Position numbers and translations under genes: made by a program. 64,000 bases of DNA, from NCBI GenBank assembly GCA_039680605.1, contig JBDKTA010000005.1, forward strand, positions 5,141-69,140, read 5' to 3'. This DNA comes from Planctomycetaceae bacterium (GTDB taxonomy: Bacteria; Planctomycetota; Phycisphaerae; SM23-33). Positions 1-24,056 of this stretch are shown one piece after another; positions within the stretch are counted from its first letter, which is position 1, and each line of letters opens with the position of its first letter. The notes under the pieces are model-generated. The model was not told where the DNA came from. It worked only from the letters and a program-made list of their open reading frames with translations, and searched no databases.

Positions 1-1330
1 CCGCTTCGGCGAAACATGGTTTGTGGCCGTCCTGGCGGGCATCGGCCTTTCGCACCTCTTGATGCGCCCCAGTGCACGCGAGTGGCGGGCGACAAAATGG
101 ATCGCCGCCGCTTGTGTCACGGTCGCTGGCGCCTTGGCGGCCACGGCAATGCTGCTGCCTGTCGCCGGTCCGGCGGGGACGGGCGCTGCCTACAAGATGT
201 TGAGCCATTTTCAGCAGTGGGATTGGTTTCTCTTCGGACCCGTCCTGTACTTGGCGGTCGCCTCCATCGCCTTGGTAGTTCTGACCGTGGCGATGCGATC
301 CAAGGCCTTGGGATGGCTGTTGGCCGCGGGCGTGCTGGCTGAGGCCGCCGTGTTCGGCTTTATCTTCCTGAATGAGCCGGTCTTCAGCCCCCGTGCCCGA
401 GAGGAAACGGATGCGTATGCCGCCGTCTACAAGCGGCGCTACCGCCGGCTGGCGGACCATCCGTACTATCAAGCCGTTCCCGCGCTTCGCGAGTTGACGG
501 CCGGCAAGAACGTACGGGTGGTCGGCACGTACTCCGACATCGACAATCTGGCCTGGGCGGCCGGCGGGTATGCGCTGCTTGGCTTTGACAGCAAGCCGCT
601 CATGCCCCGCATGCACCGGATCAGTTCGGTCTTCACGCAGGGCGAACCGTACGTGATGACGCTTTCGGTCCCGCCCCAGCAGTGCCTGGCGCTCTGGAGC
701 AACATGAACGCGGCGTACCTGGTGGCGTACAACTCGCAGGGCCTGCGTTCCAGCGGCGACCTGATCAAGACCGACTTCCTGTCGATCCTGAAATTGCCCG
801 AGCCCATTCCATACGTCTACACGCAGAACCGCGTCCAGGAACTGGAGGAGAGGGACCAGTTCCAAGCCATCTGCAGAAGCGATCTGCGGCGGTTCGTCGC
901 CGTTGAGCCTGGCCAGGCCGCCGTCCTTAAGGGGAAGGTGGATCTGACGCGCGTTCCCTGGGGCGGCTACATTGAGGCCTTCGACGCGCTGCAGAGCGCA
1001 AATCGTATCACGGCCTTGGACCGGTCCAACGCCAACCGCCTGAGCCTTAACATCGACGTGACGGTTCCGGCCATGCTCGTGATTAACGAGTGCCACCACA
1101 GCGGATGGTCCGCCCGCGTCAACGGCAGGACGGCGCCGCTGCTCCAGGTGAACTATCTCCAGCAGGGGCTCTGGTTGACCAGCGGGCAATCACACGTGGA
1201 GCTGGAGTTTTTCCCCGCCGCGGTCAAGCGCGGGCTGATGGTCAGCGTCGCTTCGGGATTGGTGGTCATACTTTCAGCCGGTGTGGCGATGGGGCTGCGT
1301 CGCCGGCGAAGGCGGGTCACCCATGGCTGA
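1..1330 (+). CDS. YfhO-like GT-C family membrane glycosyltransferase, C-terminal part (5' end lies outside the window)
   Basis: The frame is open from base 2 (RFGETWFVAVLAGIGLSHLL...). It aligns colinearly with the C-terminal ~440 aa of ORF 8128-10716 (ADHPYY/ADHPYI, DNLAW..GG.ALLG.DSKPL, VNYLQQGLWL, terminal TM plus Arg tail). Confidence 0.8.
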   Translation, partial: RFGETWFVAVLAGIGLSHLLMRPSAREWRATKWIAAACVTVAGALAATAMLLPVAGPAGTGAAYKMLSHFQQWDWFLFGPVLYLAVASIALVVLTVAMRSKALGWLLAAGVLAEAAVFGFIFLNEPVFSPRAREETDAYAAVYKRRYRRLADHPYYQAVPALRELTAGKNVRVVGTYSDIDNLAWAAGGYALLGFDSKPLMPRMHRISSVFTQGEPYVMTLSVPPQQCLALWSNMNAAYLVAYNSQGLRSSGDLIKTDFLSILKLPEPIPYVYTQNRVQELEERDQFQAICRSDLRRFVAVEPGQAAVLKGKVDLTRVPWGGYIEAFDALQSANRITALDRSNANRLSLNIDVTVPAMLVINECHHSGWSARVNGRTAPLLQVNYLQQGLWLTSGQSHVELEFFPAAVKRGLMVSVASGLVVILSAGVAMGLRRRRRRVTHG

Positions 1331-2078
1331 TGCCAATACGCTGTCGGTCTTCGTGACGGCATTGAACGAGCAGGCCAATCTCGAAATGGCCGTCGCCGTG
1401 GTCGTTGCCGCGGCGGAGCAGGGCTTTGACGACTATGAGATATTTGTCTTCAACGACGGCAGCACGGACCGCACCGGCGAGATTGCCGATGCCTTGGCCG
1501 CGGGCAATCCCAGGGTGGCGGCGATTCATCACCGGCGGCCAATGAACGTCGGCGGCTGCATTCGCGAGGGCCTGGCCCGCGCTCGGATGCACTGGTCGAT
1601 CCAGGTCGACGGCAAAGGCGCCACCACGCGCGAGGCGCTGGACCGAATCTTCGCCCTGCGAAGGCAGGCCGACCTGGTGATCCCGTACACGCTTAACACC
1701 GATCAGCGCCACCGCATGCGGCGGATCATCTCCCGCACGTACTTGATGCTGGTCAACACGCTGTTTGGCCTGAAGATGCACTACTACGGCACGGGCGCTC
1801 TGATGTTGACAGCCCTGGCGCAGCAGTTCACCATCCGCACCAGCAGCTACGCTTTCAACGCCGAGATGATCATCAAGATGGTCCGTAACGGCTGCAGCTA
1901 CGTGGAGGTCGGCATTGAAGACCGCTTCGACAACACCGGCCGTCGCAGCAAGGCCTTCAGTTGGCGCAACATCAAAGGCGTATGTGCCTTTGTGGGCCGG
2001 ACCTTCTGGGACGTGTACGTCGCCCGCGACTATCGCCGCCGCACCAACGAGGCGCCGCCGGCCGCGGCTCAGGAATAA
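1323..2078 (+). CDS. GT2 family glycosyltransferase (type a)
   Basis: GT2 N-terminal core is present (LSVFVTALNE...VFNDGSTDRT). ATG 1323 overlaps the upstream stop (ATGGCTGA). Paralogue of 23259-24056, roughly 40% identical by eye. Confidence 0.8.
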   Translation: MADANTLSVFVTALNEQANLEMAVAVVVAAAEQGFDDYEIFVFNDGSTDRTGEIADALAAGNPRVAAIHHRRPMNVGGCIREGLARARMHWSIQVDGKGATTREALDRIFALRRQADLVIPYTLNTDQRHRMRRIISRTYLMLVNTLFGLKMHYYGTGALMLTALAQQFTIRTSSYAFNAEMIIKMVRNGCSYVEVGIEDRFDNTGRRSKAFSWRNIKGVCAFVGRTFWDVYVARDYRRRTNEAPPAAAQE

Positions 2079-3094
2079 TCCTCCAGCGTGCCCTCACGCA
2101 CCAGGTCGAGGGTGACGCAGTGGGGCCCGCCGCCGAGGGGGCGCATGTGGCGAAGCTGGATCGGCAGCGATTCGATCCCGTACCGGGCCAGTTCGCGCAT
2201 CAGGTTGGTCTGGCTCTTCTCGATAGCCACCAGGTCCGGCCGCAGGCTCAGCAGGTTCATCGCGATCCACTTGGAGGCCCCGCGCCACAGAGGGTCTTCG
2301 GCGATGGGGTTGGGCTGGGGACAGTAGATCTTGTCCCACTTGGCAAAGACCTTGGGCACGTTGCTCTCGTTGACGCGGTCCGGGCACAGCAGCACCAGTC
2401 CCGGCCGCAAGGGCAGCACCGTCGAATCGACGTGCACGAAGGAGTAGATGCCCTCGGCGGGGTGCACGCGGTAGTCGCTGCCGAGGTGGTCCTGCAGCCA
2501 TCTCGCGCCGGCGTGATTGCCGGTGTTCGAGATCAGCATCAGCACGTCGCGCCCCATCTTGAGGCAGTTGGCCGCGTCGAAGACCGGCTCGTCGTTGCGC
2601 AGCGTCGGGCGCCCCAGCACGCTGCGATCGTACAGGTTGTCAAGCAGCCGCGGGCGCGGGGCCTGGACGGTGGTAAACAGGTGGCGGTAGATACGGGCCT
2701 CGTCCTGGCGATGGCGCAGCGCCATCGGCGTCTCGATCGCTTGCGTGCCGATGGTCAGGATCGTGTCGCGAGGGCAATACGCATAGCAGCCGTCGACGCA
2801 CCAGTCGGCGGTCTGGTAGCGACGAGTGAAATCCGCTGCGCCAGGCCGATGCACGCGGATACCCATCTGCGTCAGGACGCGGGCGAACTCGTCGAGGTCT
2901 TCGTTGCTTTCGTCGATGATGTGCCGCGGGTATGGGCCTGTCAGTGCCTGGGCGAACTGCTCGCCCGTGGCGTCGCCGTAGCAGACGCTGTGAAGCGACT
3001 CGTCCTTGATGGTGGGCACCTGCGCCCCGGTGGCCGTGCCGACCACCACTTCCCGCAGTGGGTGCCATTCAGTGTATGTGTTGATCGAAATCAT
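2069..3094 (-). CDS. Amidinotransferase (StrB1 inosamine-phosphate / glycine amidinotransferase family)
   Basis: 341 aa. The N-terminus MISINTYTEWHPLREVVVG and the C-terminal GGGPHCVTLDL (active-site Cys motif) are typical of this fold family, and the size is StrB1-like. It is the last gene of the minus-strand rSAM/GT2 operon. Confidence 0.75.
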   Translation of the reverse strand: MISINTYTEWHPLREVVVGTATGAQVPTIKDESLHSVCYGDATGEQFAQALTGPYPRHIIDESNEDLDEFARVLTQMGIRVHRPGAADFTRRYQTADWCVDGCYAYCPRDTILTIGTQAIETPMALRHRQDEARIYRHLFTTVQAPRPRLLDNLYDRSVLGRPTLRNDEPVFDAANCLKMGRDVLMLISNTGNHAGARWLQDHLGSDYRVHPAEGIYSFVHVDSTVLPLRPGLVLLCPDRVNESNVPKVFAKWDKIYCPQPNPIAEDPLWRGASKWIAMNLLSLRPDLVAIEKSQTNLMRELARYGIESLPIQLRHMRPLGGGPHCVTLDLVREGTLEDYS

Positions 3095-23229: not shown

Positions 23230-23258
23230 TCGCCTGCCTTCTGCGCAACGCCGCCCCT

Positions 23259-24056
23259 TCAAGAAGACGTCTGCTGCGAAGCGATTTCCGATGCGGCGGT
23301 GAACTGAACGCGCCGGGACGCCCGGGGCCACAATTCCGGCGCGTACACTTGCGATGCCGTTCGCACAAAAAAGAAAAACACGCCCAGTATGTTGCGCATG
23401 CCAAAGGCGCTGGTGCTGCAAAGGTCGGGATATATGTTCGTGATCGGCACTTCAATGCAGTTCAGGCCCGACTTGAGGGCCTTGATCAATGTCTCGGCGC
23501 TGAAGGCATAACTGTCGGTCTGGATGTTCAGCCGCCGCACCACGGCTGTGGGATACAACGCCGAATCATTGAAGTAGTGCAGGTTAAACCCGAACAGGAT
23601 GTTCAGGATTGTGGTGTAGGTGCGTGAAATCACGTGCCGAATCCAGGGGCGGTCTTTGTCATTGGTGTGATAGGGCAGGATGATGTCCGCCTGCCCGCGC
23701 AGTTCCAGGATCCGCCGCAATTGATCGCCGGCGAGGTCGTGCTTTCCGTTGACGAGGATCACATAATCCATTCGCGCCGCCTCGACGCCGGCGCGATAGT
23801 TCCATCCCAGCCCCTTGTTGAGCGGATTGTGAAACACCCGGATATTCGCAAACTCCGCCGCCAGGCCATCGGCCTCCTGATCTGTCCCGTCGGTGCTGGC
23901 ATCGTCAAAAATCAGAATCTCATAGTTCGTAAATAGACCATCAATCGCCGCCAGCACCTCCTGTACCGTCAGGCGCAGGTTCCCTTTCTCGTTGAAGGCC
24001 GGAACTATGACAGAAAGACCGGGCGCGTCCAAGATTCTACCTCCGACCGCTTGCAC
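23259..24056 (-). CDS. GT2 family glycosyltransferase (type a', paralogue of 1323-2078)
   Basis: LSVIVPAFNEKGNL and IFDDASTDGT motifs; colinear with 1323-2078. GTG start at 24056. Confidence 0.8.
   Translation of the reverse strand: MQAVGGRILDAPGLSVIVPAFNEKGNLRLTVQEVLAAIDGLFTNYEILIFDDASTDGTDQEADGLAAEFANIRVFHNPLNKGLGWNYRAGVEAARMDYVILVNGKHDLAGDQLRRILELRGQADIILPYHTNDKDRPWIRHVISRTYTTILNILFGFNLHYFNDSALYPTAVVRRLNIQTDSYAFSAETLIKALKSGLNCIEVPITNIYPDLCSTSAFGMRNILGVFFFFVRTASQVYAPELWPRASRRVQFTAASEIASQQTSS

Follow-up and report, generated by a model that had tools for sequence, protein, structure and literature searches.

The question raised by the left part of the DNA analyzed here, a stretch of 64,000 nucleotides from a Planctomycetaceae bacterium (GenBank assembly GCA_039680605.1, contig JBDKTA010000005.1, positions 5,141 to 69,140; referred to as the window), is what six radical S-adenosylmethionine (SAM) proteins might do in the midst of a set of glycosyltransferases. 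Positions 1-24056 encode six radical SAM proteins (rSAM-A, -A', -B, -B', -C and -D), five family 2 glycosyltransferases (GT2), two YfhO-like proteins and one PMT_2/TPR-type protein of the GT-C class, one LPG_synthase_TM protein and one close homologue of the amidinotransferase StrB1. Radical SAM chemistry is documented for cofactors, peptides made by ribosomes and modified after translation (RiPPs), sugars of antibiotics and a small number of lipids; to our knowledge, it has not been described in envelope glycosylation of the polyprenyl-phosphate/GT-C type. The answer developed in the following, about which our confidence and our doubt are evenly balanced, is that the genes form a composite cell-envelope glycosylation locus: modules of polyprenyl-phosphate-sugar synthesis and GT-C transfer would be combined with radical SAM enzymes of the twitch/SPASM type that tailor the sugars or lipid-linked sugars.

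Organization of the gene cluster

As the GC content of the window is high (mostly ~0.58-0.67 in steps of 2 kb, with a minimum of 0.53 at 14-16 kb), the raw list of open reading frames (ORFs) is full of spurious frames; genes were selected by third-position GC content and non-overlap, followed by correction by hand, which gave 20 genes (g1 to g20) in 1-25.3 kb. The radical SAM motif CX3CX2C is present in 6 of the 20 genes in 1-25 kb versus none of the 19 genes in 25-64 kb; the concentration of radical SAM genes is therefore not a matter of chance. The same DNA is contained in a metagenome-assembled genome (MAG; NCBI assembly GCA_021372275.1) where the cluster extends to the left of the window: the YfhO-like gene cut by the window edge is complete there (794 aa), and next to it come an ORF of 113 aa, a DegT aminotransferase gene and a GT9 gene.

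Three modules can be distinguished. Module I comprises a YfhO-like gene (g1) and a GT2a gene (g2) and, convergent to these, the series rSAM-B (g6), GT2m (g5), rSAM-A (g4) and amidinotransferase (g3); module II consists of a GT2 gene (g7) followed by rSAM-A' (g8), both convergent with a second YfhO-like gene (g9); module III contains a GT-C/TPR gene (g13) followed by rSAM-B' (g14) and GT2m' (g15), then rSAM-C (g16), rSAM-D (g17) followed by the LPG_synthase_TM gene (g18), and GT2a' (g19). Paralogues are found across the modules, with identities of 47% (rSAM-A/A'), 46% (YfhO-like pair), 40% (GT2a pair) and 39% (a pair of LamG genes). The order rSAM-B before GT2m, originally taken as preserved in both paralogous copies, is indeed present twice, but the copies are only distantly related (26% for B/B', 27% for GT2m/GT2m').

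Radical SAM and GT2 genes are translationally coupled: on the minus strand, TGATG overlaps at 5153-5157 and 4131-4135 join rSAM-B to GT2m and GT2m to rSAM-A, while TGA-G-ATG at 7151-7157 leaves 1 nt between the GT2 gene g7 and rSAM-A' (7153/7155). All three junctions agree exactly with the original prediction, and its gene inventory was likewise borne out, as detailed below, with reservations concerning the GT-C proteins. The start of GT2a (g2) overlaps the stop of the YfhO-like g1 by 8 nt, and the 3' ends of the convergent rSAM-A' and YfhO-like genes overlap by 26 nt (8128-8153). A similar convergence was seen in L174, a contig from Kiritimatiellae; the gene opposing rSAM-A there encodes an unannotated protein of 794 aa. 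A scan of positions 1-26000 against Rfam detected no riboswitch or RNA family.

The radical SAM proteins

Four of the six radical SAM proteins form two paralogous pairs. The first pair is rSAM-A (g4; 3123-4133, minus strand; motif CNCRCAYC, twitch-like C-terminus) and rSAM-A' (g8; 7155-8153, plus strand; CNCSCRYC; Pfam Radical_SAM 78 bits), the second rSAM-B (g6; 5155-6306, minus strand; CNSRCRTC; 346 aa in the public gene call, which has its start at ~6195) and rSAM-B' (g14; 18033-19064, plus strand; CPLNCRHC; Radical_SAM 57 bits, SPASM 34 bits). The remaining two are rSAM-C (g16; 19981-21132, minus strand; CNSRCAAC; Radical_SAM 78.6 bits) and rSAM-D (g17; 21237-22166, plus strand; CNLRCAYC). 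The reading frame of rSAM-C is open to 21264, with ATG 21132 as the likely start because an overlap with rSAM-D is thereby avoided; the frame of rSAM-D is open from 21207, with its likely start at 21237.

Five of the proteins match PF04055 with 39-79 bits, and rSAM-A carries the same family in the precomputed Pfam annotation. All six possess the CX3CX2C motif and, in their C-terminal part, 6-9 further cysteine residues each; a Pfam match to the SPASM domain is restricted to rSAM-B'. The cysteine spacing C-x17-C...C-x-C-x3-C is common to rSAM-B, -B' and -C, and C-x6-C-x10-C...C-x2-C-x-C to rSAM-A and -A', whereas rSAM-D differs from both patterns. Within the rSAM-B family (30 sequences), Cys-259, Cys-277, Cys-314 and Cys-316 are invariant. 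Motif, Pfam matches and cysteine counts thus confirm the six genes as originally listed, and by these sequence features the proteins qualify as members of the radical SAM superfamily with a predicted SPASM/twitch auxiliary-cluster domain.

None of the six falls into a characterized family: each matches dozens of NCBIfam radical SAM models below threshold, and the best scores (32-114 bits) stay below the curated cut-offs of 170-850 bits of the characterized families. The equivalogs compared were MoaA, PqqE, MftC, NirJ/AhbC/AhbD, anSME-type enzymes (anaerobic sulfatase-maturating enzymes), HpnH, BlsE, Tes, viperin and QueE. Sequence searches of the PDB with the radical SAM proteins returned remote matches only (PqqE, SkfB, BlsE, MoaA, GDGT-MAS, viperin and SpeY), with E = 1.7e-5 for rSAM-B versus SpeY. 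The AlphaFold2 models of rSAM-A and rSAM-B (pLDDT of 90.6 and 92.6, respectively) were compared with solved structures by Foldseek: both models matched SkfB, BlsE, PqqE, CteB, anSME, SuiB and DesII, with SkfB and BlsE on top for rSAM-A, whereas BtrN, EpeE and SpeY were retrieved with the rSAM-B model only, BtrN being matched by fold. The best full-length TM-scores (0.64-0.68) were those of BlsE, a sugar enzyme. Based on the predicted models, the fold searches fix the fold class of the proteins (twitch/SPASM) and not their substrate class.

The families of rSAM-A, -B and -C are rare and that of rSAM-D is better represented. About 40 relatives of rSAM-A were found at E < 1e-37 among 5.8 billion sequences, nine close homologues of rSAM-B, and 53 representative clusters for rSAM-C at E <= 1e-30 among 1.84e9; a pattern scan of genome contigs for rSAM-C gave no match. 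The 27 relatives of rSAM-D (44-63% identity; 29 genome loci returned) are distributed over Deltaproteobacteria/Thermodesulfobacteriota, Omnitrophota, Planctomycetota and others. The four subfamilies are undescribed, as they match no curated model and no paper found in the searches.

Conserved neighborhoods in other genomes

The adjacency of radical SAM and glycosyltransferase genes is not confined to the window and recurs in other genomes. In all four other, independent contexts of rSAM-B that were found (L136/L137, L138, L139 and L140), the gene is followed by an overlapping GT2m gene, with identities of 50-53% for rSAM-B and 44-53% for GT2m. Because only housekeeping genes surround the pair in L136, rSAM-B/GT2m is regarded as a self-contained module. 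The neighbors of the pair were a divergently oriented Mur ligase gene in L136/L137 (L136 10001-12158) and genes for an Amidase_2 protein and an M23 peptidase in L139 (2121-6973); these Mur ligase and peptidase genes hint at a substrate related to peptidoglycan or lipid II.

The pattern for the contig search with rSAM-A was built on a subset of 12 sequences, as the alignment of 28 sequences was too diverse; it retrieved only two close relatives from the genome contigs. Relatives of rSAM-A were located in a glycan context in every case examined. The operon of L072 (GC content 32%) reads TPR, GT2a, rSAM-A, DegT, rSAM-A, PMT_2, DegT, PMT_2, GDSL-TPR, rSAM-A and a further radical SAM gene, i.e. four radical SAM genes in total; its GT2a, 43% identical to g2, is positioned directly upstream of an rSAM-A gene. 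The locus L175 (1-16984; GCA_053534735.1) encodes at least eight radical SAM proteins in 17 kb, among them one with a double domain, three A-family members in tandem and at least two B12-type ones, with another two cut off by the ends of the locus, together with two DegT-type aminotransferases, a YdjC-family protein, two PMT_2 GT-C proteins and one GT2. A YfhO gene and a B12-type radical SAM gene stand beside rSAM-A in the Kiritimatiellae contig L174; elsewhere (L004/5), a GT9 gene is followed by rSAM-A, GDSL, GDSL/TPR and PMT_2 genes with a carbamoyltransferase gene upstream, and in L069 genes of a UDP-ManNAc dehydrogenase and a UDP-GlcNAc 2-epimerase precede rSAM-A.

Two further pairings of rSAM-A recur. 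On three unrelated contigs (L003 10001-11953, L068 8977-10921 and L173 7082-9008), an LPG_synthase_TM gene is directly adjacent to or overlaps rSAM-A; the pair, alone in L173, looks like a conserved two-gene module. At two unrelated loci (L009 10004-12779 and L068 9896-12730), a carbamoyltransferase gene of the NodU/CmcH/TobZ type is located directly downstream of rSAM-A, i.e. in the same position that the amidinotransferase gene g3 occupies after rSAM-A in the window (2069-4133). By analogy, this correspondence suggests that amidino- and carbamoyltransferase might be interchangeable in capping the same group generated by the radical SAM enzyme.

Homologues of GT2a are present near rSAM-D in 19 genomes, mostly ~3 kb upstream and mostly with 36-39% identity to g19, and one or two genes for g13-like transmembrane/TPR proteins in 12 related loci. 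The deltaproteobacterial operon of L148 (2892-10885) consists of genes for a radical SAM/SPASM protein, the alpha and beta subunits of a TPP-dependent E1 enzyme (TPP, thiamine pyrophosphate), GT2a, a B12-type radical SAM protein, a small ORF and GT9, the stop of the latter overlapping the start of rSAM-D; it suggests formation of a branched-chain or C-methyl sugar in a context resembling that of the lipopolysaccharide (LPS) core. A locus with an rSAM-B'-like gene (L142) has the order rSAM, rSAM, PMT_2, PMT_2, GT2 and again rSAM. The adjacency of radical SAM and glycosyltransferase genes thus spans several phyla and GC contents of 32% to 65%; such conservation of gene order supports well a functional link between the two.

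Glycosyltransferases, amidinotransferase and LPG_synthase_TM protein

The five GT2 genes were all confirmed by Pfam PF00535. Three of them encode small proteins of the Dpm1 type: g2 (GT2a, small soluble Dpm1/GtrB-like; 1323-2078, plus strand; 51.5 bits), its paralogue g19 (GT2a'; 23259-24056, minus strand; 78 bits) and g7 (Dpm1/ArnC-like; 6413-7153, plus strand; 105 bits). Below the respective cut-offs, the NCBIfam matches include ArnC, PgfS, AglJ and dolichyl-phosphate hexose transferase for g2 and, as the best one, ArnC (68.7 bits) for g7; C-terminal transmembrane helices were not predicted in g2, g7 or g19. The GT2m protein g5 (4133-5155, minus strand; 25.5 bits) is a membrane-anchored GT2 of the MftF/EpsD-like type, with a C-terminal hydrophobic region and with MftF as best NCBIfam match (94.5 bits versus a cut-off of 280). 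Its counterpart GT2m' (g15; ~19061-19975, plus strand) matches the GT2 family with 76.5 bits; if translation begins at TTG 19121, the match sets in at profile position 17. At the junction of g14 and g15 (19022-19130), no ATG, GTG or TTG start covers the first GT2 beta-strand of g15 (AIIIPCYNS): the frame is already open ahead of the rSAM-B' stop, and ATAG at 19061-19064 offers a possible ATA start overlapping the TAG stop; alternatively, translation may be reinitiated after termination, or a frameshift or an error of assembly may be involved.

The three GT-C proteins are more divergent. The two YfhO-like proteins, g1 (1-1330, plus strand; the C-terminal 442 aa of a gene that runs off the window start) and g9 (8128-10716, minus strand; 862 aa), were originally described as YfhO-like: the Pfam gathering threshold (GA) of 28.5 bits is indeed reached by both (29.3 and 37.5 bits), but the match covers only the last ~100 residues, whereas about nine predicted N-terminal transmembrane helices (and, in g9, an additional C-terminal one) are not matched by any profile. 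No relative of g9 was found in the PDB by sequence. The third protein, g13 (15607-17970, plus strand), combines a multi-helix membrane domain of PMT_2/GT39 type with TPR repeats detected by Pfam in an architecture similar to TMTC; the original TMTC-like assignment is upheld by its homologues (more than 4700), many of which, at 45-50% identity and mostly from Verrucomicrobia and Phycisphaerae, carry PMT_2 (PF13231) or the name O-mannosyl-transferase/GT39, but not by its own transmembrane domain, which has no Pfam match. The isolated transmembrane domains of g1, g9 and g13 gave no GT-C match in Pfam either. Judged by sequence and gene order, the three proteins qualify as predicted GT-C transferases encoded together with GT2 genes.

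The gene g3 (2069-3094, minus strand), directly downstream of rSAM-A, encodes an amidinotransferase of the StrB1 type: residues 4-340 match StrB1, the inosamine-phosphate amidinotransferase (PDB 1bwd), with E = 4e-93, and the GGGxHC context of the catalytic cysteine is retained (GGGPHC in g3, GGGFHC at the aligned position of StrB1). The protein can therefore be assigned, at the level of sequence, to the StrB1/AGAT family. The gene g18 (22171-23229, plus strand), which starts 4 nt after rSAM-D, encodes a "flippase-like" membrane protein of the LPG_synthase_TM/TIGR00374 family with 104 bits for the Pfam model and 70 bits, above the cut-off of 43.2, for the NCBIfam model. Both assignments correspond to those of the original prediction.

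Proposed pathway

The conserved partners of the radical SAM genes, i.e. GT2, GT9, GT-C, DegT, carbamoyl-/amidinotransferase and LPG_synthase_TM, favor a glycoconjugate rather than a peptide as substrate. Because these sugar- and membrane-related partners are conserved (GDSL and TPR proteins included), because hallmarks of RiPP systems are missing and because the LamG genes of the cluster do not recur, the locus is interpreted as an assembly of glycosylation modules. Extracytoplasmic glycosylation systems of the three-component type consist of a GT2 (GtrB/CsbB/PgfS), a small flippase (GtrA/GtcA) and a GT-C enzyme (GtrC, YfhO or PgfM1/2); the ArnC/ArnT pathway is related. As in these systems, small Dpm1/GtrB/ArnC-like GT2 are paired in the window, partly with translational coupling, with GT-C proteins of YfhO-like or PMT_2 type, and a DegT aminotransferase gene is nearby as in the Arn pathway. 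Unlike in these systems, six radical SAM genes and an amidinotransferase gene are interleaved, and a GtrA/GtcA-family flippase is not among the called genes, the putative flippase being the LPG_synthase_TM/TIGR00374 protein instead. The papers found on three-component glycosylation do not contain the term "radical SAM", and full-text searches for a connection of radical SAM enzymes to YfhO, to LPG_synthase_TM or to three-component glycosylation yielded nothing relevant, a literature search for the assembly accession being likewise without result; a described glycan or lipid pathway to which the cluster corresponds was found neither by profile nor by full-text literature searches.

At least three modules of a small GT2 and a periplasmic GT-C enzyme (g1-g2, g7-g9 and g13...g19) would form the basis of the proposed pathway, with the four radical SAM subfamilies grafted onto them. 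First, the GT2 would transfer a hexose or hexosamine to a membrane carrier lipid, the membrane-anchored GT2m possibly acting on a membrane-bound acceptor. The radical SAM enzyme might then abstract a hydrogen atom of the sugar and oxidize C-OH to the keto level, like BtrN, SpeY and DesII; ring contraction (as in HpnJ and Cds), epimerization or decarboxylation (as in BlsE) would be equally possible outcomes. The DegT aminotransferase, whose gene is located shortly to the left of the window, could aminate the keto group, and the StrB1-type enzyme could convert the amine to a guanidino group; in the sister clusters, the position of the latter enzyme is taken by the carbamoyltransferase. Finally, the LPG_synthase_TM protein may assist in translocation of the lipid-linked product, and the YfhO-like and PMT_2/TPR GT-C enzymes would transfer it to acceptors of the envelope, e.g. 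LPS core, other glycans or surface proteins, with a cationic guanidino decoration as the presumed end product. A lipid-linked sugar as substrate and the chemistry outlined are plausible from the sequences; the substrates, the order of the steps and the type of radical reaction are what we infer from gene content and gene order.

Several observations weigh against this interpretation. The nearest solved structures are mostly those of peptide-modifying enzymes (SkfB, PqqE, CteB, SuiB and anSME). The similarity of g1 and g9 to YfhO is limited to the C-terminal end noted above, and the small GT2 (g2, g7 and g19) are tied to polyprenyl-phosphate acceptors only by sub-threshold similarity to ArnC, PgfS, AglJ and PpgS. 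Of ~12 contexts of rSAM-A, only 3 include a DegT gene. In L172, the locus of the most similar amidinotransferase homologue retrieved (68% identity), no radical SAM gene is adjacent to it, so that the link between amidinotransferase and radical SAM enzyme rests on the window and on the analogy to the carbamoyltransferase. The succession of rSAM-D and LPG_synthase_TM was not seen in L148, and since many of the rSAM-D loci originate from related deltaproteobacterial MAGs, they do not represent independent observations.

If these radical SAM families tailor lipid-linked sugars, both their chemistry and the resulting structures of the envelope, perhaps guanidino decorations of cationic nature, would be new, in phyla that are poorly studied and mostly uncultured, and a function could be assigned to thousands of proteins annotated as "radical SAM protein" or "flippase-like". 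Envelope glycosylation and sugar tailoring by radical SAM enzymes are each of a known kind; the recurring pairings point to a tailoring of envelope sugars that has not been described. The pairs rSAM-B/GT2m, LPG_synthase_TM/rSAM-A and rSAM-A followed by amidino-/carbamoyltransferase offer compact two-gene modules for testing. A bolder extension, to which we attach a small probability, would be a widespread but undescribed class of envelope decoration in the Planctomycetota-Verrucomicrobiota-Chlamydiota superphylum (PVC), Omnitrophota, Thermodesulfobacteriota and others: twitch/SPASM radical SAM enzymes would have membrane-lipid-linked sugars as their direct substrates and, with GT2 and LPG_synthase_TM proteins as partners, generate keto, amino or carbocyclic (cyclitol) units; these would receive amidino or carbamoyl groups and be passed on by GT-C enzymes, with guanidino-/ureido-sugar or cyclitol decorations of LPS, glycans or proteins formed without nucleotide-sugar dehydratases.

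Alternative explanations

A pathway for membrane-lipid head groups of the hopanoid/calditol type, where the GT2 glycosylates a hopanoid, an ether lipid or a comparable membrane lipid, the radical SAM enzyme forms an (amino)cyclitol by contraction or rearrangement of the sugar and the StrB1-type enzyme yields a guanidino-cyclitol lipid, is considered unlikely, even if it shares several features with the locus. The combination of GT2, radical SAM and LPG_synthase_TM genes recalls the hpn genes, which are accompanied by HpnL, a protein of the LPG_synthase_TM family, and the locus L175 contains a gene of the YdjC family, to which the hopanoid deacetylase HpnK belongs. GT2m is membrane-anchored, and the characterized StrB1 relative of g3 acts on an aminocyclitol phosphate. 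Documented examples of a hexosamine or hexose that is attached to a membrane lipid by a GT2 and subsequently rearranged by a radical SAM enzyme exist in hopanoid biosynthesis, where HpnI (a GT2), HpnK and HpnJ (a radical SAM enzyme) act in sequence on a lipid-linked sugar, and in the archaeal calditol synthase (Cds), a radical SAM enzyme that likewise acts on a lipid-linked sugar (PMC13459092). Together with MftC/MftF, these are partial precedents for the system proposed here, and the original statement that no such system with radical SAM partners is known was too strong. HpnH is indeed among the sub-threshold matches of rSAM-A and -A'; the scores for Hpn models, however, remain far below the cut-offs (HpnH 64-82 bits versus 225, HpnI 14.8 versus 310, HpnB 15-33 versus 379), and the HpnJ and HpnL models are not among the matches listed (the best 25 of 51-76 for five of the six radical SAM proteins). 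Neither a hopanoid core pathway nor a squalene-hopene cyclase or any other hpn gene is present in the 64-kb window, and the occurrence of three GT-C proteins, unlike in the hopanoid pathway, together with three small Dpm1-like GT2 is better explained by periplasmic glycosyl transfer.

It appears improbable that the radical SAM proteins are maturases of peptides or proteins, either in a RiPP-like system or acting on the PEP-CTERM LamG proteins or other secreted proteins that are subsequently glycosylated by GT2 and GT-C. The closest structures and profiles do belong to SPASM/twitch peptide maturases (MftC among them, in addition to the peptide-modifying enzymes listed above), two LamG PEP-CTERM genes are located inside the cluster, and the best match of GT2m is MftF, which glycosylates a RiPP-derived cofactor. 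Indeed, the partnership of a radical SAM protein with an MftF-like GT2 is shared with mycofactocin biosynthesis (MftC and MftF; also with the arsenosugar enzyme ArsS and an MftF-like glycosyltransferase). The scores for MftC (the best NCBIfam match of rSAM-A, 113 bits versus 265) and MftF, however, fall far short of the cut-offs, and no MftA/MftB-like precursor or chaperone was found. No RiPP recognition element (RRE) was found in the six radical SAM proteins, the 17-58 residues ahead of the CX3CX2C motif being too few for one; in the cluster there was no match to PqqD or any other peptide-binding Pfam domain, no precursor-like ORF, no conserved peptide partner, no protease and no ABC exporter. 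Apart from 14087-14547, where a promoter and a terminator are located, the intergenic gaps are tiny. Homologues of the LamG/PEP-CTERM proteins were absent from all related loci compared by tblastn, whereas glycosyltransferases recur. In consequence, the original proposal of the LamG proteins as targets finds no support; these genes also possess promoter-like sites and a terminator of their own.

An aminoglycoside- or aminocyclitol-like secondary-metabolite cluster, in which radical SAM dehydrogenases, DegT, the StrB1-type enzyme and glycosyltransferases would make a diffusible guanidino-glycoside, is regarded as very improbable. The full-length homology of g3 to StrB1 is strong, BtrN, SpeY and DesII are among the structural or sequence neighbors of rSAM-B, and, as in the aminoglycoside pathways with BtrN, SpeY and DegT-family enzymes, twitch-type radical SAM genes stand beside DegT genes in L072, in L175 and in the left flank, where the DegT gene adjoins the cluster. 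Unlike a biosynthetic gene cluster of the Streptomyces type, however, the locus and its relatives are dominated by a membrane setting, i.e. GT-C proteins with periplasmic domains, Dpm1-like GT2, LPG_synthase_TM, GT9 and TPR proteins; the identity to BtrN and SpeY is marginal and a dehydrogenase activity would be conjectural. Neither the window nor the left flank was found to contain a resistance gene or genes for an NDP-sugar or inositol-phosphate synthase, a kinase or an exporter.

Finally, a chance mosaic of functionally unlinked accessory genes in a variable polysaccharide island, which the divergent and convergent units, the low identity of the paralogue pairs (26-47%) and the inserted appearance of the LamG genes in a stretch of lower GC content might suggest, is hardly credible and largely refuted by the conserved adjacencies across phyla of widely differing GC content, besides the start/stop overlaps of radical SAM and GT2 genes and the restriction of the radical SAM motif to the cluster. 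According to the curated profile scores, the cluster is not a member of any of the known systems compared, and the interpretation as an envelope glycosylation locus with radical SAM enzymes as sugar-tailoring components is retained.

Accessory and neighboring genes

The gene g10 (10878-13181, plus strand) encodes an accessory protein with TPR repeats, a PD40 beta-propeller and an N-terminal transmembrane segment or signal sequence; its candidacy as a GT-C protein was rejected in view of this TPR/PD40 architecture. In L069 (11064-13454), the gene after the rSAM-A homologue encodes a protein of 796 aa that carries a PD40 repeat and an HZS_alpha domain (middle domain of hydrazine synthase alpha, 125 bits), to be compared with the PD40/TPR protein g10.

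The two LamG (Laminin_G_3) PEP-CTERM genes, g11 (13244-14086, minus strand) and its paralogue g12 (14548-15516, minus strand), are preceded by sites scored as near-consensus sigma-70-like promoters (14318-14291 with 11/12 and 15532-15505 with 10/12 matches, respectively), and a strong terminator with a 14-bp GC-rich stem follows g12 (14521-14489). Because of these promoter-like sites and the terminator, both genes are considered separate transcription units; their appearance is that of insertions with strong expression and a transcription of their own in the stretch 14087-15600 of lower GC content (0.53). A plus-strand ORF at 14455-15366 was discarded as spurious for its odd composition and lack of matches, the real gene being g12 on the minus strand.

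The right edge of the cluster is formed by g20 (24178-25260, minus strand), a URO-D/MtaA-like gene (MtaA-CmuA-like, resembling methylcobamide methyltransferases) whose membership in the cluster is uncertain. The genes to the right of g20, among them those of a DUF4159 protein, an S49 peptidase, fucosidases, a GH38 mannosidase and AraC regulators, look unrelated to the cluster. The region 25284-43737 represents a neighborhood of glycan degradation and regulation: in addition to the DUF4159 and S49 peptidase genes, it encodes two alpha-L-fucosidases, a GH38 alpha-mannosidase of 1505 aa, two AraC regulators, metallophosphoesterases and, at 35137-35919, a further PEP-CTERM protein that bears an F5/8 type C domain.

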